From Gaiellales bacterium (lineage in GTDB: Bacteria; Actinomycetota; Thermoleophilia; BMS3ABIN01): a stretch of 64,000 nt of DNA. Below are positions 2,679 to 34,745 of the stretch, in pieces. The DNA is taken from assembly GCA_003599855.1 (NCBI GenBank), contig QZKG01000070.1, positions 5,698 through 69,697 of the forward strand, given 5' to 3'. The translations under genes were made by a program, and so were the position numbers. Each line of letters begins with the position of its first letter. Within the stretch, counting starts at the first letter, position 1. Under the pieces are notes generated by a model. That model was given only the letters and a program-made list of their open reading frames with translations, was not told the origin of the DNA and made no database searches.

Positions 2679-2933
2679 CTAGCTTGCCTTCGCGCGGCGA
2701 AGCAGGTAGCCTGCGCCGACCAGAGCGGAACCGATGCCGCCCAGTATCAGCAATGGGCTGCCGGTGGTGCCGCCGGTGGTGCCTCCGGTCTGCGGACCGG
2801 TACCACCACTCTCTACAACAGTCGCGAAAGAAAGCTGCGCGAAAATCATCATGACGCAGATAGCCAAAACCGTCGTTATCAAGAACAGGTAAGCCTTCTT
2901 CTTCAATTGATTCACCTCCCTCTGGATTCCCAT
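2679..2933 (-). CDS. Small Thr/Gly-rich bitopic membrane protein: N-terminal signal/TM, GGTGPQTGGTTGGTTGS linker, C-terminal TM plus RRAKAS tail
   Basis: 84-aa ORF. It has its own perfect -35 TTGACA with a TAGATT -10-like element upstream (minus strand, ~2934-2990) and the strong terminator downstream. The C-terminal hydrophobic segment followed by basic residues resembles a sorting-signal tail, but there is no LPXTG. Confidence 0.5.
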   Translation of the reverse strand: MGIQREVNQLKKKAYLFLITTVLAICVMMIFAQLSFATVVESGGTGPQTGGTTGGTTGSPLLILGGIGSALVGAGYLLRRAKAS

Positions 2934-6703: not shown

Positions 6704-8146
6704 GTGAAAAACGACAACCACCAGGGAACGAGCGGCTTCTGGGCGCGGCGCGCCCGGCGCGCTGTTTTGATAACGGCGGAGGCGACCATCGCCGCTGTGA
6801 TGGCGTTTCTCACCATGATCCTGGTGGCGCCCACCGAGGTGCAGGTCGGCCCCGTGCTCATCGGGTTCGAGGCGAGGCCGTCCTGGGGCGGCCACACCGT
6901 GGTTGAACTGCCGCCGGCGGGATCGCTGCATGCCCAGACCCATCGCGCCCCGGTGGAGCTGGTATTCACGCTCAAGGAGATAGCGGTGGACCAGGCGGCT
7001 GACCTCACGCGGGAGGGCTCCGCCGCCAGGGAGGAGCTGCGCATGTGGCGTGAGCCCGTCACGGGCGCGGCGCGCATGCTGTTGCTCAGGACGGCGGTTG
7101 CCGCGGCGCTGGCGGCGGGGTCGATAGCATGGCTGGCCAGGCGCCGCTGGGCATGGGTAGCAGCGGGAATGGCCCTGGGCCTGACTGTCGCGGCAGGGTT
7201 GTCACTGCTTGTCTGGTACTCCTACGACCTGGATGCCTTCTCCCAGCCGGAGTACACCGGCAACCTGGCGCGGGCGCCGGAGATCGTCGGCTTCTCCCAC
7301 GAGTTCCTGGCGAACCTTGAGACCTATTCCGACCAGGTGCCGCGCATCGCCGAGAACCTCTACCGGACCGTGAACGAGCTGCAACGGCTCCCGGACGGCA
7401 TGCCGCTGGAGGATTCCATCAGGGTGCTGCACGTCTCAGACCTCCACAACAGTGAAGCCGGGGCCGCGCTGCTGCAGCGCGTGACAGGGCTTTACGACAT
7501 CGACTTCGTGATAGACACAGGCGACATCAGCGAGCTCGGCACCCCCTTTGAGCTGGGTTACCCCGGAACATTCCTGCCACTCGAAGTTCCTTACCTGTGG
7601 ATTGCGGGGAATCATGACAGCGGCCTGGTGAGCGAGACTATGGCGGAGATAGATGGGGTCACGGTGCTCGACGGTGACTTCAGGACTGTCGAGGGGCTGA
7701 CGGTGGGGGGCTTCCCCGACCCTTCCGCCGCTTCGCTCATACCCAGGGTGGCCACCGGAAGCGAGCTGGAAGAAGACAGCCGGATGATACTGGCGGCGGT
7801 CAGGGAGGCTAAGCCTGCCCCCGACATCATCGCTGTCCATGATCCCGGGCAGGCCCGCAGGCTTACCGGGGTCGTCCCGGTGGTGCTGAGCGGCCATGTC
7901 CACCGGGATTCCATCGATGTGACGGACGGCACGGTGCTGATCAACGCCGGCAGCACGGGCGGCGGCGGCCTGCGGGGCTTCGAGGCGGAGGGGGAGACCC
8001 CCAGCTCCCTGCAGGTGCTGTATTTCAACCGCTCCACTCATAAGATCATGGCGGCCGACACCATAGTGATCTACGGTTTCAGCCAGGAGTACACGGTTGC
8101 CCGGCAGATCTTCAGCGGCACTGATGCACCGGTCCCCGTCGCATGA
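6704..8146 (+). CDS. Membrane-anchored calcineurin-like metallophosphoesterase
   Basis: N-terminal TM segments followed by a metallophosphoesterase domain with motifs VLHVSDLHN, DTGDISELG and IAGNHD. Confidence 0.65.
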   Translation: MKNDNHQGTSGFWARRARRAVLITAEATIAAVMAFLTMILVAPTEVQVGPVLIGFEARPSWGGHTVVELPPAGSLHAQTHRAPVELVFTLKEIAVDQAADLTREGSAAREELRMWREPVTGAARMLLLRTAVAAALAAGSIAWLARRRWAWVAAGMALGLTVAAGLSLLVWYSYDLDAFSQPEYTGNLARAPEIVGFSHEFLANLETYSDQVPRIAENLYRTVNELQRLPDGMPLEDSIRVLHVSDLHNSEAGAALLQRVTGLYDIDFVIDTGDISELGTPFELGYPGTFLPLEVPYLWIAGNHDSGLVSETMAEIDGVTVLDGDFRTVEGLTVGGFPDPSAASLIPRVATGSELEEDSRMILAAVREAKPAPDIIAVHDPGQARRLTGVVPVVLSGHVHRDSIDVTDGTVLINAGSTGGGGLRGFEAEGETPSSLQVLYFNRSTHKIMAADTIVIYGFSQEYTVARQIFSGTDAPVPVA

Positions 8147-8268
8147 GCCGGCGCCAGGGCCGGGCGCCCTTCCGGCACGTTGCATGGAAGCCGAGATGAT
8201 AGTATTTTTCGATCGAGCAGCGTAATTATTCTGCCCGCGGCCCGTCATATGGGCAGAGAGGGCAAGGA

Positions 8269-9711
8269 ATGATGATGGAGCTTACTGACAGTCAGCTGGC
8301 GCTGATGGCGGGCCGGGGTGATGCGGACGCCTGCCGGCGGCTGTTCGAGCGTTACCAGCATCCGGTCTACAATTTCGTGTACCGGATGGTGGACAACGCC
8401 GAGGACGCTTCCGACATCGTCCAGGACGCCTTCATCAAGGTATATAACGTCCTCGGGCGGCAGGAAGTCCGGAACTTCTCCGCTTACCTCTACCGCACCG
8501 CCAGGAACCTCGCCTACGATGAGATGAGGCGCCGGTCCCGCTTCGCCGATGTCGACCAGGAACTGCTGGCGCCGGAGGACCCGAACATCTACGCCGACCC
8601 CCAGCGGGCCCTGCTCCTCGCCGAGCAGATGCAGAAGGTACGGCAGGCTGCGGGCGGTCTCAGCGAGAACCAGCGGGCGGCGCTCGTCCTGCGGGAGCTG
8701 GAGGGGTTGGACTACGACCAGATGGCGGAGGTCATGGAATCCAACCGCAACGCCGTCGGGGCACTGCTGTCGCGGGCGCGCCTGAAGTTCAGAGAGGAGC
8801 TCAGGATGGCTCAGGTAAGAACAGACATGGCACCGGAAGAATGCGAGGAGGCCATCGCCCTGCTTTCTCCCTACATTGATGGCGAGCTTGCCGGTGAGGA
8901 CATCGCTTACGTCGAGCGCCACCTGGAGCAGTGCGGCTTCTGCGCGGCTGCGTTTGAAGAGATGCGCGAGGCTTCGCGTTCCTTCAGGGTGCTGATACCG
9001 GTCATACCGCCGGCCGACATGGCCGAGGCCTTCACGCGCAGGCTCCGTGAGGCGGGCGACGCTGCTGCGCAAACTGCCGGCGGGCAGGCAACGGACACCG
9101 CCCCCGCGGGCAGCCGTTCCCTTGCGTCCAGGTTCATGGCCAGCAGGATCACCTGGGCCGTTACGGCTCTCGTGGCAGCCGCCGGCCTGGGTTTATTCCT
9201 TATCGCGGGCGAGGTGGGGCGCGATCGGGACGTGGCTGCGACCCGGACGGGGGAGGGGGGAGCGGCGGGTCAGCGGGATGACACAAACGACGGTCTGCGG
9301 GAGATGCCCGGCGTCGGACCGGCCCACGGTGACGGCATCGACCTCCAGGGCGCCCAGGATGGCCAACCCGGGGCGGACGGCCGGGCAGAGCCAGGCCAGG
9401 ATGATCCGGGTGAGACGGCGGCAGGCATGGTCGTATCCGGGTACGCCACCCCAAACCCGGTAAAACAGTACTCGCGGGTGACGGTCACCGTGGAAGTGAC
9501 CGGCAGCCCCGGTTCGGTCTCGGTGGCCATCGGCGACGCCATGACCGTGAAGCTGGCCAGGCAGTACGCCACCCCGGACGGCGAAGTCTGGAGCTGGGCC
9601 GGGAATGCACAGGCGCCCGGCTATTACGTCATGACCGCCTCGGCCGCCTATCCCGGCGCTACCGCAGAGGCGATGATCGGCGCCCTGGAAGTCGTCTACA
9701 CCCTCTACTGA
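8269..9711 (+). CDS. ECF sigma factor fused to ZAS-type (zf-HC2) anti-sigma domain, one TM helix and an extracytoplasmic C-terminal domain (ECF52-like architecture)
   Basis: Sigma-70 region 2 (DIVQDAFIKVY...YLYRTARNLAYD) and region 4 (LSENQRAALVLRELEGLDYDQMAEVM...LSRARLKFREEL) continue without a stop into an anti-sigma zinc-finger (LSPYIDGELAGEDIAYVERHLEQCGFC). This is followed by a TM helix (ITWAVTALVAAAGLGLFLIAG) and a ~170-aa C-terminal domain. One uninterrupted 480-codon ORF. Confidence 0.7.
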   Translation: MMMELTDSQLALMAGRGDADACRRLFERYQHPVYNFVYRMVDNAEDASDIVQDAFIKVYNVLGRQEVRNFSAYLYRTARNLAYDEMRRRSRFADVDQELLAPEDPNIYADPQRALLLAEQMQKVRQAAGGLSENQRAALVLRELEGLDYDQMAEVMESNRNAVGALLSRARLKFREELRMAQVRTDMAPEECEEAIALLSPYIDGELAGEDIAYVERHLEQCGFCAAAFEEMREASRSFRVLIPVIPPADMAEAFTRRLREAGDAAAQTAGGQATDTAPAGSRSLASRFMASRITWAVTALVAAAGLGLFLIAGEVGRDRDVAATRTGEGGAAGQRDDTNDGLREMPGVGPAHGDGIDLQGAQDGQPGADGRAEPGQDDPGETAAGMVVSGYATPNPVKQYSRVTVTVEVTGSPGSVSVAIGDAMTVKLARQYATPDGEVWSWAGNAQAPGYYVMTASAAYPGATAEAMIGALEVVYTLY

Positions 9712-9840
9712 CAAGCCCCTCCGGCTCGCAGCGGTTATCAAAAGCAGCCGCGCTTTCCTGCCCCTGCGTAATTCCTGAGCCTTTTCTGCGTCATAGAAGT
9801 GGCGACCAGATCAGAGCCGCGTCAGGGAAAGGGAGGACGG

Positions 9841-10584
9841 ATGCCATCCGCCGATTACACCAGGTACAGAAGCAGCAGGTTCGTCCGCCGCAGGCCGTTG
9901 ATGAGTCCAGGGCAACATGCGCCAGGCTGCGGCGGGGCCGGAAGCGAGCGTTTTTCCTGGGGGTGGTTCGTGAGAAAAGCGCTGGCCTTGGTGATCCTGG
10001 CCGGCATCGCCCTGTTCCTCTATGCCTGCTGGACCTTCGGCTACGGCTATTACCGGGCGAAAGTCGGACAGGGCGAACTGCGCTCGCTGTTCTCGTTCAC
10101 CGGAGACGGGTCGGTGGACGCCGGTTACGTGCGCGGCGAGGCGGAAGCCATAGCGGCCGGTCTGGCTTACCTCGATCCTGTCGGGGAGATCTCGATACCG
10201 TCCATCAATTGCGACTGGATGATCGTCGAAGGGTCCGACGACGGAGCGCTGTCCCGCGGTCCAGGGCATATCCAGGAGACCCAGCTGCCGGGGATGGGCG
10301 GCAACTTCGCCGTTGCGGGCGACCGCGTGCTCTACGGCGCCCCCTTCCTCGACCTGGATGACGTCGTGGTCGGCGACGAGGTGACCGTACGGATGCCATA
10401 TGCCACCTTCGTGTACCGCGTCAATGAGACCTTCATCGTCACCCCTGACGACACGAGTGTCCTCAGGCCGGTGGGCTACGATGCCATCACCCTGCTCACC
10501 TGCGACCCGCCCTGGGACGTCAAGCAGCGGATCGTGGTGAGGGGAGAGCTCACAGATATCCTCCCGGCCGGGACGGGCGCCTGA
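9841..10584 (+). CDS. Sortase (transpeptidase), TLxTC catalytic motif; class E-like
   Basis: N-terminal TM anchor, catalytic motif ITLLTCDPPW, conserved His region (GPGHIQETQLPG) and a downstream Arg. The start was placed at the ATG preceded by RBS GGGAGG (MPSADY...). Confidence 0.7.
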   Translation: MPSADYTRYRSSRFVRRRPLMSPGQHAPGCGGAGSERFSWGWFVRKALALVILAGIALFLYACWTFGYGYYRAKVGQGELRSLFSFTGDGSVDAGYVRGEAEAIAAGLAYLDPVGEISIPSINCDWMIVEGSDDGALSRGPGHIQETQLPGMGGNFAVAGDRVLYGAPFLDLDDVVVGDEVTVRMPYATFVYRVNETFIVTPDDTSVLRPVGYDAITLLTCDPPWDVKQRIVVRGELTDILPAGTGA

Positions 10585-10613
10585 CCGGATGCAGCCGGGA
10601 CGGGCCGAAAAAA

Positions 10614-13307
10614 CTAACGCCCGTTGCCTGTCAGTCGCACCACCAGCAGGGCGATGTCATCCCTGAGCGCCCCTCCCGCATATTCGATGGCCTCGTCGAT
10701 GAGCGCCTGGGCGATGGACTGGGATGCCTCATCGCCATTCCTGTCGACGCAGTCCAGTATCCGCTGTTCGCCGAAGGGCGCGTCGTCGGACTGCCTCGCC
10801 TCGAGCAGGCCATCGGTATACATCACCAGCACGTCCGACGGGGATACCGGCGCCTGCGTGGACAGGAATTTCTGGTCCGGGATGACCCCCAACGGCACTG
10901 CCGGCTCAGAGAGAAGCAACGACGCCTTGCCCCTGCGCGTCAGGACCGGCGGCGGGTGCCCGGCCGAGGAATAATACATCTGTGACGAGCTGTTATCGAT
11001 GAGCGCCAGGCCGACGGTGACGAATTTCTCTATCGACACCTGGTTATGGATGTTGTGGTTGAGCCGGGTGAGGCAGTCGCCGGGATGCATCCCTTCGCCG
11101 AGGTAGGCGCGCAGCATGTACTTGATCATGGCGGTATAGGTGGCGGCGGCGAGCCCCTTGCCACAGACGTCGCCGACGACCAGGGCGATCCGGCCCTGGT
11201 CCAGCTCGATGAAATCATAGAAGTCGCCGCCGACCTTGCCCAGTTGCCCCGCAGACTGGTACAGAAGACCCACGTCGATGTCGTCGCGAGACGGCGGCTC
11301 CGGCAGCAAAGCGTCCTGGAGCGTCTCGGCCACGACGTGCTCCCGCTCGAAGTTCTCGGCGCTCACGAGGGCGACGGAGCTCTGGGCCGCCAGCAGGGAG
11401 ATGATCTCCTCGTCGCTGCTCGTGAACTCCGAGCCCTCTGCCTTGTCGCTGAGCATGAACAGGCCCCGGGCCCGCCCCTTGGTATCACGGATGACGCCGG
11501 CCAGCAGGCCGCGCAGGCCGATATGCCCTGCCGGCAGCCCTTCGAAGGCATGGCCGGCATCCAGCCTCACTGTGCTGGTCTCCCTGTCGGCAAGCAGGCG
11601 GGAAAAGCGCTGATGCAGGCTGGAAGCGTCGGTCTCGACGGCGCACCGCTGGCTGTTCCAGGGCGCGTAGTGGCTGGAGACGATGGTCGATTTCCCCTCT
11701 TCTGTCAGGGTCATGATCCCGAAACCGGCGGCGGTCAGCTCGGCAGCCGCTTTGAGCACCGTCCGCAATAGCTTGTACTTGTCTGTCTCGCGGTTGAGGG
11801 ACAGCCCGACGTCGTGGAGGACCGAGAGCTGGTTGGCGTAATTCTGGCAGATGCTCCTGCTCTCGAGTTCGTCACTGAAGAGCGCGGCGTTCTTCAGTGA
11901 GAGGGAGACGACCGTGGCCAGCTTCCCGGCGAAATCCAGTTCAGCAGGGAACAGGGACCTGCCGCTCTCCCTGTAGCCGACTGCCAGCACGCCCATGACC
12001 TCATCCTGCGCGTGCAGGGGGATGAGCAGCAGCGACCCCAGCCCCATCGATTCGATGTTGTCCAGGCTTGCCTGGGCCGGGGGGGACGCTACCCTCGGAG
12101 CGCCGCCGGCCATGGCTTCGTCGAAGAGGGCAGCCTCCTCGCGGTTCAGGAGGGTCCCCCTGTAGCTGGCAGCCACACCGTAGACATGGCTGACGGACCA
12201 CCCCTGAGCGTCACTGCTGGCCACAAAGGCCTGGCCGGAACCCAGGGCGCGGGACGCCTCCACCATCGTCGCATCGATGATGCGCTCGATCTCCAGGGAG
12301 GACCCGATGATCCCGTAGATGCTGTTGAGAGCGTCGCTGAGCTGCTCGTATCGCCTGCGGCTGGTGATGTCGCGGATGATGCCGGTGAAGAAGGTTCCCT
12401 CCATCGTCTTCCAGTAAGAGAGTGACAGTTCCAGGGGGAACTCGCTGCCGTCCTTGCGGAGGCCGTGCATCTCGACGGTCCTTCCGATGACCCGGGGCAC
12501 GCCGGTCTGAAGGAACTCCCGCATGGCGCGCTGGTGGACGTCGCGGTACAGCTCGGGCATCAACATCGTGAGGTCCTGGCCGAGCACCTCAGCTTCCTCA
12601 TAACCGAAGATCTGGCGGGCGCCGTTGTTCCAGGAAACCATGCGGCCCTTCTCGTCAGCAGATATGATCGCGTCGTTGGCCGACTGGGCCAGGGACCGGA
12701 AACGCTCCTCGCTTCTCTCCAGAGACTTGACCGAGTAGTCATTGGCCAGCGCCACGGCGGCGAGTTCACCAAATACCGTAGCCAGCCTGGCATCGTTGTC
12801 GTTGAAGCCGTCCGGCTTGTTGGCGAGGCCCATCAGGCCCACCACCCGGTCATCCAGCATCAGCGGCGCGAACATCACGTTTTGCAGGTCCACATGGCCG
12901 GCAGGCATGAACTCCTGCCAGGGGCTGCCGGCGAAATCGTTTTCGTAGGCGACCCTGCCGCTGGCATACACCTCCCCGCGCAGGCCGCGGAAAGGCATGG
13001 GCAGCTCCGGGTCGACGGTGCAGGGCAGGCCGCCGGAATCCAGGAATACGACATCGACATCAGCACCGTCTTCGCTGACCAGGGCGACATAACCGCTGGT
13101 CGCGCCTGTGAGTTCCCTGGCGATGTCGAAGATTGAGTGCGCCGCGTCGCTGAAACTCTTGAATTCGGAGACAGACCGGGAGGCCGTGAGCAGCGCCGCT
13201 ATCTCCAGGTCGTGCTGACTTATCTCGCGGGCGAGTTTTTCTGTCTGCTCCCGGGATTCGCGGAGCTGCTCCAGCAGTTGCCGGCGTGTCCTGAGCCTGT
13301 CGATCAT
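10614..13307 (-). CDS. Multidomain signalling phosphatase: coiled-coil, GAF, PAS, GAF, C-terminal PP2C/SpoIIE serine phosphatase (RsbU-like)
   Basis: PAS block (DAIISADEKGRMVSWNNGARQIFGYEEAEVLGQDLTMLMP). C-terminal PP2C motifs (GGDFYDFIELDQGRIALVVGDVCGKGLAAA ... MYTDGLLEAR). 897 aa. Confidence 0.7.
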   Translation of the reverse strand: MIDRLRTRRQLLEQLRESREQTEKLAREISQHDLEIAALLTASRSVSEFKSFSDAAHSIFDIARELTGATSGYVALVSEDGADVDVVFLDSGGLPCTVDPELPMPFRGLRGEVYASGRVAYENDFAGSPWQEFMPAGHVDLQNVMFAPLMLDDRVVGLMGLANKPDGFNDNDARLATVFGELAAVALANDYSVKSLERSEERFRSLAQSANDAIISADEKGRMVSWNNGARQIFGYEEAEVLGQDLTMLMPELYRDVHQRAMREFLQTGVPRVIGRTVEMHGLRKDGSEFPLELSLSYWKTMEGTFFTGIIRDITSRRRYEQLSDALNSIYGIIGSSLEIERIIDATMVEASRALGSGQAFVASSDAQGWSVSHVYGVAASYRGTLLNREEAALFDEAMAGGAPRVASPPAQASLDNIESMGLGSLLLIPLHAQDEVMGVLAVGYRESGRSLFPAELDFAGKLATVVSLSLKNAALFSDELESRSICQNYANQLSVLHDVGLSLNRETDKYKLLRTVLKAAAELTAAGFGIMTLTEEGKSTIVSSHYAPWNSQRCAVETDASSLHQRFSRLLADRETSTVRLDAGHAFEGLPAGHIGLRGLLAGVIRDTKGRARGLFMLSDKAEGSEFTSSDEEIISLLAAQSSVALVSAENFEREHVVAETLQDALLPEPPSRDDIDVGLLYQSAGQLGKVGGDFYDFIELDQGRIALVVGDVCGKGLAAATYTAMIKYMLRAYLGEGMHPGDCLTRLNHNIHNQVSIEKFVTVGLALIDNSSSQMYYSSAGHPPPVLTRRGKASLLLSEPAVPLGVIPDQKFLSTQAPVSPSDVLVMYTDGLLEARQSDDAPFGEQRILDCVDRNGDEASQSIAQALIDEAIEYAGGALRDDIALLVVRLTGNGR

Positions 13308-13510
13308 GCTTGCGCTGCCTTCCAGGGGCAGAACCCTGGCCAGCTTACCGGCTGGTTCTCCAGCAGATCGGCATCCAGTCGCGCTTCCCCTGTGACGATC
13401 CTGACCCTCATCGAGCCTCCTGTTCGCGATGTCATATCATTGTATGCGCGGCCGCGCTTCGGCTCAAATCGGCAGGGATGGCAATGGCGGCGGCGTTCCC
13501 CGGCTGGCAT

Positions 13511-13550
13511 AAAAAAGCCCCTGCCGCGCTCCGCCCAGGCAGGGGCTTTT
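13511..13550 (-). terminator. Rho-independent terminator downstream of the superoxide reductase gene (potentially bidirectional)
   Basis: Stem GCCCCTGCC (13517-13525) / GGCAGGGGC (13538-13546), flanked by an A6 run upstream and T4 downstream. Confidence 0.55.
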
Positions 13551-13606
13551 GCCCTGACGGGCAAACCCGGTACCCCGCAGGCGCAGCCGCAGGGGCCGCC
13601 GCGCCG

Positions 13607-13966
13607 TCAGAGCGACAGTTCGACGCTGTTGGTCCAGTCGCCGTGCAGGTTGCAGCGCTCATACGCCCTCAACCTGCCGGGACCATCGACCCTGACGGAA
13701 AAGGTAACCTTGGGGTCGGTGTAGCCCCAGGTGAGGTCACACCTGCTCAGGAACCTGTCATCCAGGTAGAGGTCGATGAACTCGATGTGGTGTTCCGCTT
13801 CGTTGGGATGGGCCATCTGCTCGCCGACCCAAACCGTCACCTCGAAGAACTCGCCCGCCCTCGGCGTGCCGCCGATATGGATCATCGGCACGTGCTTCTT
13901 CTCGAGGTCAGTCATGTTGGCGAAATCCTTCACCTCGTTGATGCTGGTGGCTTGCTCGATACTCAT
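13607..13966 (-). CDS. sor: Superoxide reductase (desulfoferrodoxin/neelaredoxin family, 1Fe-SOR type)
   Basis: KKHVPMIHIGG...AHPNEAEHHIEFIDLYLDD matches the SOR ferrous-iron-binding domain (KHVP...H..E.H.I..I.L). The start was placed at the second ATG (MSIEQ), which has RBS GGAGGAG 4 nt upstream. Confidence 0.65.
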   Translation of the reverse strand: MSIEQATSINEVKDFANMTDLEKKHVPMIHIGGTPRAGEFFEVTVWVGEQMAHPNEAEHHIEFIDLYLDDRFLSRCDLTWGYTDPKVTFSVRVDGPGRLRAYERCNLHGDWTNSVELSL

Positions 13967-14121
13967 ATGCTCCTCCATTCAGCCTGTTTTGTTCCCCTTG
14001 ATACGTTGCTTGTAATAACCGGTTACCCTTGAGCTGGTCCGTTGAAACCGGTGATTCCGGTTAAAAATCACGGCGATGGGTAAAAAAGTAGTCAGACTGA
14101 CAACGAACAGGGAGGAATTTG

Positions 14122-16246: not shown

Positions 16247-16307
16247 TACTACCTCCCGGGATAGTATGACGCTCCCTGCTGATACTATTTCCGGAAACGG
16301 GGTTTTT

Positions 16308-29416: not shown

Positions 29417-29533
29417 CATGCTCGCTGCCTTAGTCATCTGGTTATCCAGAAGGGGGTTTTACAGCGGCAGGTTTGAAGTCGGAACTGCAAGACAATAACA
29501 TGGCGTCAACCTGTTCTGACGAAGGAGGCTTCG

Positions 29534-30016
29534 ATGAGAATGAAGCATGTATCTTTACTGACAGTCGTTTTCCTGGTGGCCGCTGCTGTCGCCGCCGGAA
29601 CGGTCAGCGCATGCCTGCTTGCGAATCTGACGCTGACCCCCAACAGCGGTCCTGCCGGCACAATGGTGACAGCTGAAAGCACCGGCGGTACCCCTGACAC
29701 AGCCTACAATCTTTACTGGGATGGGGCCTTGATCGCTTCCGGAACAAGCGATTCAGGAGGCAATGGCACCGCTTCCTTCATGGTGCCCGCGGACGCGTCG
29801 GTGGGCGGACACCTGGTCGAGTACGAGGAGGGCCAGACAGTGATGTGTTCGGCAGGATTCACCGTGACGGCTGCCACGGCGGACACGGGCGTCCAGCCGG
29901 ACGCTTACGTCTCTGTATCGAGCCTGCCGGCTACCGGGCTGGTGCTGCTGGTACCTGCCGCTGGCCTGGCTCTTGCCGGTGCGGGCCTGTGGTACCGGCG
30001 CAGGCGCGATCGATAG
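29534..30016 (+). CDS. Small LPXTG-anchored surface protein (sortase substrate), paralog A
   Basis: Signal peptide, ~110-aa Thr/Gly/Ser-rich beta-domain, C-terminal LPATG + hydrophobic stretch + RRRRDR. Shares motif LTLTPNSGPAGTMV with paralog B (YTLTPDSGPAGSTV). RBS GAAGGAGG. Confidence 0.65.
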   Translation: MRMKHVSLLTVVFLVAAAVAAGTVSACLLANLTLTPNSGPAGTMVTAESTGGTPDTAYNLYWDGALIASGTSDSGGNGTASFMVPADASVGGHLVEYEEGQTVMCSAGFTVTAATADTGVQPDAYVSVSSLPATGLVLLVPAAGLALAGAGLWYRRRRDR

Positions 30017-34160: not shown

Positions 34161-34745
34161 ATGGCTGAAAGCGGTTGGCTTAGAGTGGGATGGACGACCC
34201 TTTCGTTGCTGCTGTCCGCCGTCATCGGGCTGGTCCTTCCGGCAGCGGCTTTTGCCCAGACGCCGCCGCCCGGAGAATGCAACGGCGAGATGTCGCTCCA
34301 CGGCACCTACACGCTCACGCCTGACTCCGGCCCGGCTGGCAGTACCGTGGCATTGAACGGCTCATTCCCCTTGTTCACCGGCATCCAGGATGCCACTCAG
34401 ATCATGGGGCCGCCGCTGGAGGCCTGGTGGTTCACGGGGCCGGGCGACGCCACTTTCCTGGGCGAGCTGCCCACCGACTTCAATGAGGTGGACACGGCCT
34501 ATGTCAGCGGCAACATCACGATACCGGCAGGCGCGGCCCCGGGCCCCCATAACGTGGCGCTGGACATCGCCGGCGGCACCGACCCCGATTGCGTAGTCTT
34601 CACCGTGACCGAGCCGGTTCAGGCGGATGCATATCCTCAGACTGGTGCGAACCGGCTGCCCGATACAGGATACGCCCCATTATTGCCGCTGGCGGGAGCA
34701 GCCGCGGCGGGTGCGTTGCTGACGGCCTGGAGGCGTCGTTCGTAG
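34161..34745 (+). CDS. Small LPXTG-anchored surface protein (sortase substrate), paralog B
   Basis: Signal peptide (MAESGWLRVGWTTLSLLLSAVIGLVLPAAAFA), beta-rich domain, C-terminal LPDTG + hydrophobic stretch + WRRRS. Strong RBS GGAGGGAGAG upstream. Start placed at ATG 34161. Confidence 0.65.
   Translation: MAESGWLRVGWTTLSLLLSAVIGLVLPAAAFAQTPPPGECNGEMSLHGTYTLTPDSGPAGSTVALNGSFPLFTGIQDATQIMGPPLEAWWFTGPGDATFLGELPTDFNEVDTAYVSGNITIPAGAAPGPHNVALDIAGGTDPDCVVFTVTEPVQADAYPQTGANRLPDTGYAPLLPLAGAAAAGALLTAWRRRS

Follow-up and report, generated by a model that had tools for sequence, protein, structure and literature searches.

A membrane-spanning sigma/anti-sigma fusion and its neighbouring sortase gene behind copies of one ECF-type promoter in Thermoleophilia

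The stretch of DNA considered here, a 64-kb window of contig QZKG01000070.1 from a Gaiellales bacterium metagenome-assembled genome (MAG), encodes a sigma factor of the extracytoplasmic function (ECF) type fused to a zinc-associated anti-sigma (ZAS) domain, a transmembrane (TM) helix and an extracytoplasmic domain, with a sortase gene directly downstream. This arrangement had been described in an original prediction made from the sequence, which also proposed that the fused protein controls the sortase together with a set of surface proteins. New relative to that account is a conserved ECF-type promoter that ties the fused gene to the sortase gene. The reading favoured here, with a probability of about 0.7, is that of a tethered, autoinhibited sigma/anti-sigma fusion that is released by proteolysis and then switches on its own gene and the sortase. 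Judging from the sequence, the local regulon in the window would comprise these two genes, the fused gene itself and a dedicated sortase. The cassette to which they belong occurs in Thermoleophilia and other Actinomycetota MAGs.

Architecture of the fused protein

The coordinates of the fused gene, of its domains and of the associated features are collected in Table 1. Three consecutive ATG codons stand at the 8269 end of the gene, any of which could be its start. Within the one polypeptide, the Pfam models Sigma70_r2, Sigma70_r4_2 and zf-HC2 each score above their gathering score, the last at residues 192-223 (5e-9; 36.5 bits against a cut-off of 22.2), and the NCBIfam model TIGR02937 (sigma70-ECF) matches the protein at 95 bits against a cut-off of 42.9. 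The sigma part consists only of regions 2 and 4, a core of about 180 residues that places it among the ECF (group 4) sigma factors. By its motif and a putative cysteine ligand upstream, the extension after region 4 is a class I anti-sigma domain of the ZAS subtype: HLEQCGFC lies at residues 218-225, and the candidate zinc ligands C192, H218, C222 and C225 (C-x25-H-x3-C-x2-C) are invariant in 37 aligned sequences. AlphaFold2 predicts four helices here (190-203, 210-221, 223-242 and 249-270), with HxxxCxxC at the junction of helices II and III, an arrangement typical of class I ZAS anti-sigma domains.

A cytoplasmic tether of about 30 residues (261-292), variable in sequence, leads from the anti-sigma domain to the TM helix. 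Hydropathy on the Kyte-Doolittle scale peaks at 2.17 over residues 294-312, and the helix is found at the equivalent position in all homologues; its alanine-rich composition (VAAAG) is not conserved among them. The 165 residues C-terminal to the helix form a linker, predicted to be disordered over residues 316-381, and a beta-sandwich. The 70 linker residues include 16 Gly, 11 Asp, 10 Ala and 5 Pro, and the linkers of homologues are rich in Thr, Ser, Gly and Asp and vary in both length and sequence. The immunoglobulin (Ig)-like sandwich, presumed to be a sensor or interaction domain, is kept in 33 of the 37 homologues, with P395, G412 and W441 conserved at 90% or more. A Foldseek search with the full-length model returned, through this C-terminal domain, generic Ig-like folds (CARDB, the sulfite-oxidase dimerisation domain, LAIR-1) and no functional lead for the ectodomain. 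In the window protein itself Pfam matches nothing C-terminal to zf-HC2, and comparison of 25 C-terminal domains with Pfam gave weak, scattered Ig-like matches (Big_13, FlgD_ig, CARDB) and weak CBM_6 matches in two. No conserved sorting motif was found within the fused protein and its homologues, a few of which have sporadic chance matches.

Separate sigma and anti-sigma genes, in that order, are the commonest ECF layout, and a frameshift or lost stop introduced by sequencing or assembly could in principle have joined two such genes; one metagenomic relative (L014) indeed carries an in-frame stop two residues past the equivalent of C192. Several observations make an artefact hardly credible. 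A homologue search covering 5.8 billion proteins yielded about 40 homologues at 46-64% identity, labelled as Thermoleophilia or Actinomycetota MAGs, and in all of them sigma regions 2 and 4 and zf-HC2 lie in a single chain; the identical protein is RJQ42327.1, from a Gaiellales bacterium MAG (class Thermoleophilia, phylum Actinomycetota). As these sequences come from independent NCBI, JGI, ENA and Logan assemblies, the retention of the fusion excludes a frameshift artefact. In the 37-sequence alignment the 255 cytoplasmic residues are very strongly conserved and the junction, REELRMAQ-x-T-x3-P-x-ECE, is nearly invariant. Sigma region 4 and the first anti-sigma helix are only about ten residues apart, too few to accommodate a ribosome-binding site (RBS) or a second gene start. 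The DNA of the junction, flagged from the outset as the place to look for a frameshift, gives no sign of one: it has no homopolymer runs, the other two frames contain 12-14 stops, and the GC content of third codon positions is continuous, at 0.74-0.96 across domain-sized segments and 0.65 in the 20-codon junction window. An exhaustive hidden Markov model (HMM) search of 1.84 billion representative proteins found 374 clusters at E values of at most 1e-30; among the top 150, almost every alignment runs from sigma region 2 to the ZAS motif within a single polypeptide of 400-1040 residues. The artefact reading is therefore rejected on the independent homologues, the conserved junction and the continuous coding signal. 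The single membrane-spanning chain with sigma and ZAS parts thus stands as first described, and its C-terminal extension, whose absence from homologues would have told against that description, is conserved.

The stop in L014 (5001-5777) falls two codons beyond the first zinc-ligand cysteine (…DECE*IVALLSPYIDGEL…) and is a single case. If real, it would leave the sigma domain free of its inhibitor; a sequencing error, a pseudogene and a natural constitutive variant are all conceivable explanations. Across the wider superfamily of single-chain sigma-ZAS-TM proteins (P0103-P0126), the ectodomains are interchangeable and include PD40 beta-propellers, PASTA, BiPBP_C/Big_7 and BNR domains; NPCBM was present in none of ten distant members sampled. 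A scan of a genome collection with the fused protein matched only an unrelated Verrucomicrobia ECF sigma factor.

Table 1. Positions of the fused gene, its domains and associated features (window coordinates unless a locus of a relative is named)
Feature	Residues	Position	Strand	Remarks
Fused ECF sigma/ZAS anti-sigma/TM/Ig-like gene		8269..9711	+	480 aa, uninterrupted open reading frame (ORF)
Sigma-70 region 2	25-91	8341..8541	+	Pfam PF04542, 8e-18; predicted local distance difference test (pLDDT) >90
Sigma-70 region 4	122-173	8632..8787	+	Pfam PF08281 (Sigma70_r4_2), 2e-11; pLDDT ~90 in cytoplasmic model
Class I anti-sigma domain, ZAS motif	190-270	8836..9078	+	Four predicted helices; zf-HC2
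Single TM helix	293-315	9145..9213	+	Hydropathy and predicted helix; N-in/C-out topology
Extracytoplasmic low-complexity linker	316-385 (~70 aa)	9214..9423	+	pLDDT <50, composition, alignment
Ig-like seven-strand beta-sandwich	386-477 (~92 aa)	9424..9699	+	pLDDT ~97
ECF-type promoter P1, CGTAAT-N16-CGTCATA		8221..8249	+	21 nt before ATG of fused gene; position weight matrix (PWM) 33.0 bits
ECF-type promoter P2, CGTAAT-N16-CGTCATA		9767..9795	+	Precedes sortase gene; PWM 28.2 bits
Possible housekeeping-type promoter, TTGCAT-N17-TATTTT		8180..8208	+	Tentative; upstream of P1, read from the sequence
Sortase gene		9841..10584	+	247 aa from ATG 9841; mechanical ORF from GTG 9799
LPXTG ORF, LPATG		29534-30016		Hydrophobic stretch and Arg-rich tail follow motif
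LPXTG ORF, LPDTG		34161-34745		Hydrophobic stretch and Arg-rich tail follow motif
RNA-like element, L002		9226-9325
RNA-like element, L003 (also L004, L010)		8575-8674
RNA-like element, L005		8606-8705
RNA-like element, L006		9085-9184
RNA-like element, L012		3880-3979

A shared promoter and the sortase cassette

When the 220-nt regions upstream of six orthologues of the fused gene are aligned, a conserved block, CGTAA(G/T)TT-N14-CGTCATA, stands out directly 5' of the Shine-Dalgarno sequence. It is laid out like an ECF promoter: the -35 box ends in AA, 16 nt separate the two hexamers, and the -10 box is CGTC. Against an expectation of 0.10, the 64 kb contain two exact matches to CGTAA-N16-18-CGTCA (8221-8247 and 9767-9793, both on the coding strand), a number reached in none of 100 shuffles. 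The first copy, P1, would be an autoregulatory promoter of the fused gene, by its position. The second, P2, precedes the sortase gene and counts as an independent match, because it was left out of the definition of the motif. No further PWM site of at least 8 bits is present in the window; with three mismatches allowed there is one extra match, at 16265, which is at chance level.

The same association is found in relatives. Contigs with homologues are denoted here by L numbers and fall into clade 1, the close homologues, and clade 2, with 40-56% identity. In clade 1 the PWM detects the promoter 5' of the fused gene in every one of 14 loci, 5' of the sortase gene in all seven loci that have one (as the variant CGTTATA in L003), 5' of an LPNTG gene or an RNA-like element in five of five, and 5' of an acidic gene lacking LPXTG in two of two. 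The copies, two to four per locus, are always on the coding strand and mostly score 28-43 bits, whereas the best score in 200 kb of control ECF loci is 15.5 bits. Clade 2 has one related promoter, TGTAAT-N16-AGTTGTA(C/G)GAGTAG, 5' of the first gene of its operon. The strongest argument at hand for recognition of these promoters by the fused sigma factor, which is probable on this comparison of sequences, is that promoter and sigma factor change together between the clades.

Upstream of P1 lies the possible housekeeping-type promoter of Table 1, and AT-rich boxes resembling TTGACA or TTGATA occur at the equivalent position in L002 and L003. A consensus promoter scan of 8000-10700 called no sigma-70-type site, the 8180-8208 candidate included. 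A terminator scan of the same interval found one terminator-like site, inside the sortase gene and at chance level, and the region between the fused gene and the sortase gene has no convincing terminator.

The product of the downstream gene had been identified as a sortase by a TLxTC motif, and this is confirmed by TLLTC at the active site and a match to PF04203 (7e-30). H143, C221 (of TLLTC) and R230 are invariant in seven orthologues, and a hydrophobic segment lies at residues ~45-70. Since the -10 box of P2 ends at 9795, GTG 9799 cannot be the start of the sortase gene. The true start is likely to be ATG 9841, which has the RBS AGGGAGG upstream and opens an N-terminal YTRY motif common to all orthologues. 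The best NCBIfam model is class E, at 116 bits under a cut-off of 160, and the ranking by sequence of enzymes in the PDB places class C and D sortases above SrtE1; assignment to class E is thus not supported at the cut-off, and the class is left open. Class E enzymes prefer LAXTG; the motifs of the cassette substrates in relatives are LPNTG, LPKTG, LPFTG or LAYTG. This is the only sortase in the window.

A sortase gene stands directly 3' of the fused gene in the window and in L002, L003/L004/L010, L005, L006, L009 and L012. In L002, L003, L005, L006 and L012 it is followed by a small gene, at 8587-9063 in L002 for instance, for a protein of 158-192 residues. The signal peptide of this protein, its low-complexity region rich in acidic residues and proline, its LPNTG or LPKTG motif and the hydrophobic segment and arginine-rich tail make it a textbook sortase substrate. 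In clade 2 (L007/L021, L017, L018, L019, L020) the order is substrate, sortase, ECF, and the substrates are again acidic, their motif being LPFTG or LAYTG; L020 yielded no substrate ORF. The same metagenome scan recovered about 40 unfused ECF loci (23-37% identity), none of which has a sortase. By sequence, the family unit is a three-part cassette of fused sigma/anti-sigma factor, dedicated sortase and small acidic LPXTG surface protein. The adjacent substrate gene is missing from the window and from L009, and the 810-bp gap beyond the downstream phosphatase gene (13308-14118), checked for a displaced copy, holds only a desulfoferrodoxin-like ORF. The window is hence a reduced cassette, of regulator and sortase, from which the cognate acidic substrate has been lost. 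The shared promoter, together with adjacency in two clades with different gene orders, argues that the sortase is functionally linked to the regulator, and the link is taken to be real and regulatory.

In two further clade-1 loci an acidic secreted protein is encoded behind the same promoter, 3' of the fused gene (L063 9654-10223; L064 7096-7671). It keeps a C-terminal TM segment and a basic tail and is without LPXTG, and the ZAS motif of the regulator in these loci reads HCA(A/D)CTFC. These loci suggest that the acidic anchored protein, and not the sortase, is the most constant partner of the fused regulator.

The original prediction looked for substrates of the sortase among LPXTG proteins some 20-25 kb away, in the Wood-Ljungdahl cluster. 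Two such ORFs do lie there, at a distance of 19-24 kb, among genes for formate-THF ligase (FTHFS), RACo, a CooC-like ATPase, FolD, CdhD and carbon monoxide dehydrogenase (CODH). The 64 kb hold no other canonical LPXTG ORF and, with no cassette substrate in the window, these two invite the view that the sortase is a coincidental or otherwise regulated neighbour and that the fused ECF controls distant genes such as these. A search for an ECF motif common to the sortase and LPXTG genes succeeded for the sortase, at P2, and failed for the LPXTG genes, neither of which has the cassette promoter upstream even at three mismatches or at PWM scores of at least 8 bits. The LPATG gene does have an ECF-like box upstream, GGAAC-N18-CGTC at ~29481-29508, but this motif is distinct from the cassette promoter and would match a different ECF sigma factor. 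Nor is there homology of the two LPXTG proteins to the Ig-like ectodomain or to the acidic cassette substrates. Given the identical promoter before the ECF and sortase genes and nowhere else in the window, and the adjacency of the two genes across two clades and two gene orders, a distant regulon with an unconnected sortase is very improbable. The proposed control of a sortase and surface-protein set is thus upheld for the sortase, through P1/P2 and conserved adjacency, and not for the Wood-Ljungdahl LPXTG genes. Their products may still be anchored by the window sortase. The two proteins are weakly paralogous (34% identity over 156 residues, E=0.011), with a common start, LTP(N/D)SGPAG.

Some clade-1 relatives also carry an element of about 95 nt, absent from the window, with near-invariant nucleotides GGGGAAAGCACGAGTACCCGCCGG...GCTTAAACT...GACCAGTCACTGG...CTCCATTTGACGGATGGAG. 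In every case an ECF promoter copy stands 60-100 nt 5' of it, and the element either forms the leader of the acidic LPNTG gene or follows that gene as a unit of its own. ORFs spanning it have inconsistent starts and stops. RNAalifold folds it into four helices, and the closing stem shows compensatory changes. Rfam gave no match to it, either at the gathering threshold or at E values up to 10. On these features, it is a candidate for a new ECF-dependent structured RNA.

The remaining neighbours are shared by part of the family only and do not belong to the core: two PMT_2 glycosyltransferases, an upstream TM metallophosphoesterase and a downstream phosphatase. In the window the TM-anchored metallophosphoesterase is encoded at 6704-8146 (+), and the phosphatase, of GAF-PAS-GAF-SpoIIE (PP2C) architecture, at 10614-13307 (-), convergent with the sortase gene, the two stops lying 30 nt apart. 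This flank is also seen in L002, L003, L005, L009, L063 and L064 (the phosphoesterase being missing from L009 and the phosphatase from L063/L064); neither gene flanks the cassette in L006 or clade 2. No cassette promoter precedes either gene in the window. As SCO4117, a fused ECF of Streptomyces, is reported to be phosphorylated (PMC5826349), a link between the regulator and these enzymes is conceivable. Further upstream, conserved proteins of 73-78 residues (window ~2685-2900 (-); L002 3733-3969; L003 3911-4135; L005 4003-4224; L009 5592-5819) have a signal peptide, a stretch rich in Gly, Ser and Thr, a TM helix near the C-terminus and the tail RKAKA, with no LPXTG in their sorting-signal-like C-terminus. 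Their genes adjoin the paired PMT_2 (protein O-mannosyltransferase-like) genes, and they may be glycosylation substrates.

Mode of activation

In the resting state the anti-sigma domain is predicted to clamp sigma regions 2 and 4 in cis, leaving a closed sigma factor, anchored N-in/C-out, that would be unable to bind RNA polymerase. Structure prediction is compatible with this autoinhibited form. An AlphaFold2 model of residues 1-262, built from a more diverse alignment, is compact (pLDDT 86.7, predicted template modelling score 0.80). Its sigma part resembles SigW in the SigW-RsiW complex (template modelling score 0.82-0.85), the sigma factor in CnrH-CnrY (0.84) and that in RpoE-NepR (0.72-0.74), and is far from sigma factors in RNA polymerase initiation complexes (0.33-0.44, root-mean-square deviation >20 Å). 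By sequence, RsiW is the nearest of the solved anti-sigma factors (E=5e-4), and AlgU, RpoE and SigW are the nearest sigma factors in the PDB. Activation would begin with some extracytoplasmic cue acting on the Ig-like ectodomain, upon which the anti-sigma part would be removed or inactivated, most probably by regulated intramembrane proteolysis as in RsiW/SigW and the fused protein IutY. The freed sigma domain would then direct RNA polymerase to CGTAA(G/T)TT-N14-CGTCATA promoters, giving positive autoregulation from P1 and expression of the adjacent sortase from P2.

Several points weigh against this account. The subclade formed by L063 and L064 within clade 1 has no sortase, which indicates that the regulator does not strictly need one. 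The alignment behind the predicted closed conformation is shallow, at 36 sequences. That the signal is envelope stress and that release is proteolytic are ideas carried over by analogy from other systems, and the cassette includes no site-1 or site-2 protease gene. Processive degradation from the cut TM end would have to halt before the sigma domain, a problem unsolved for fused ECFs. The pairing of sigma factor and promoter is deduced from position, conservation and parallel change between clades, such that another ECF is conceivable, and the family is known from the sequences of uncultured MAGs only.

No proteolysis would be needed if the ZAS domain were a thiol/redox switch of the RsrA or RslA kind, in which oxidation frees the zinc and opens the cis-clamp; the protein would then be a redox sensor sited in the membrane, with the sortase response belonging to an oxidative-stress programme. 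The invariance of the full C-x25-H-x3-C-x2-C ligand set fits such a switch, as do the anaerobe-type, acetogen-like character of the MAG, the rubrerythrin and desulfoferrodoxin genes a few kb away, here and in relatives, and the crystal structures of SigW-RsiW in both oxidised and zinc-bound forms (5wur, 5wuq). Those nearby oxidative-stress genes, however, have no copy of the promoter, and the conserved TM helix and extracytoplasmic Ig-like domain indicate a signal from outside. Most ZAS proteins are not redox-sensitive, and RsiW, the nearest solved anti-sigma factor, is removed by site-1 and site-2 proteolysis and is not redox-controlled. A redox switch is accordingly unlikely. About as unlikely is a sigma factor that is never released and works while tethered once a conformational change has crossed the membrane, a true one-component system in the manner of ToxR or CadC that recruits RNA polymerase to membrane-proximal DNA. 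It would dispense with the need to stop a protease at the sigma/anti-sigma boundary, the variable cytoplasmic tether could accommodate it, and in some ECFs the extension is known to work through a change of conformation (ECF41 and ECF238, for example; PMC8999054). Yet an active membrane-tethered sigma factor is without precedent, and for core binding a class I domain must vacate the surfaces of both sigma regions, which is hard to achieve through a single TM helix; IutY, the sole fused membrane ECF to have been studied, is released by Prc and RseP (PMC8999054).

Proteolytic release thus continues to be preferred, and one elaboration of it, a long shot, concerns its input. The cassette might form a closed feedback circuit of surface display, in which the ectodomain monitors the sortase reaction and the status of anchoring, rather than generic envelope stress, triggers release, while in relatives the ~95-nt RNA adds a post-transcriptional arm. 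The ectodomain could do so, for instance, through contact with the acidic LPXTG precursor or product, or as a partner of the sortase. If this were true, ECF signalling would gain a new input logic, and a sortase/substrate pair a new part in regulation.

Relation to known systems and significance

The fused ZAS and TM layout is shared by the actinobacterial groups ECF48, ECF52 and ECF53 (PMC8999054), and the protein had been described as having an ECF52-type architecture. As defined by Huang et al. (2015), ECF52 proteins have a zinc finger and TM extension, a long proline-rich region and a carbohydrate-binding module (smart00776/NPCBM), and are restricted to Actinobacteria (PMC5826349). Like SCO4117 of Streptomyces coelicolor (ECF52) and members of ECF48 and ECF53, the fused protein joins an ECF core to a C-terminal zf-HC2 domain, a TM helix and an extracytoplasmic extension, and occurs in Actinomycetota. 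Unlike ECF52 proteins, it has a Gly/Asp-rich linker with 5 prolines in 70 residues in place of the proline-rich region, and an Ig-like sandwich; neither Pfam nor Foldseek finds an NPCBM-type module at its C-terminus. No Streptomyces-labelled protein is among 64 homologue matches, which is weak negative evidence. The ECF52 label is acceptable as a description of architecture, and membership of the group is not established. For SCO4117, positive autoregulation and proteolytic release have been proposed, and its truncated form shows autoregulation (PMC5826349, PMC8999054). Its reported motif, CSGYN-17-SRHA, differs from the promoter found here, CGTAAGTT-N14-CGTCATA, and it adjoins atrA and has pleiotropic developmental targets, in contrast to the tight sortase/substrate cassette.

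The fused protein also resembles SigW-RsiW of Bacillus subtilis, in having a single-pass N-in anti-sigma part with an extracytoplasmic domain and in the predicted closed arrangement of the two sigma regions. It differs in being one chain, in its unrelated ectodomain and in its association with a sortase cassette instead of a membrane and antimicrobial stress regulon, and cleavage of the PrsW/RasP type could be supposed only by analogy. IutY of Pseudomonas putida (ECF243), likewise a membrane-spanning sigma/anti-sigma fusion and the only one experimentally dissected, is released by Prc (site-1) and RseP (site-2) and is constitutively active when truncated to its sigma domain (PMC8999054). It has, however, a FecR-type anti-sigma domain, serves Gram-negative cell-surface signalling with a TonB-dependent receptor and belongs to an unrelated ECF group.

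Links between regulators and sortases are known in other forms. In Bacillus anthracis, srtC-basI with sctRS comprises a specialised sortase, its single substrate and an adjacent two-component system. Operons of this kind similarly unite sortase, substrate and regulator, the regulator being a two-component system or a sporulation sigma factor and not a fused ECF. In Streptomyces, the ECF sigma-BldN, held by the membrane anti-sigma factor RsbN, directly activates the chaplins, of which the long ones are sortase substrates (PMC4255298); there, unlike here, sigma and anti-sigma are separate, the sortase genes lie outside the cassette, and the substrates are hydrophobic amyloid proteins rather than acidic and of low complexity. 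A literature search turned up neither a relevant ECF-sortase link nor any account of a fused ECF that is encoded alongside a sortase and regulated together with it.

Single-chain sigma-ZAS-TM proteins form a large 'one-component' group of sigma factors with little experimental characterisation, and the activation of ECFs fused to a membrane anti-sigma domain has been dissected for IutY alone, while the regulon of SCO4117 is diffuse and pleiotropic. With one regulator, a sharply defined promoter and a regulon of two or three genes, the cassette would offer a minimal system that is readily testable with a heterologous reporter. To our knowledge, the cell-surface biology of Thermoleophilia is essentially unstudied, and the present findings would place a dedicated sortase, together with an acidic substrate in relatives, under an ECF switch in this deep-branching lineage of the Actinomycetota.

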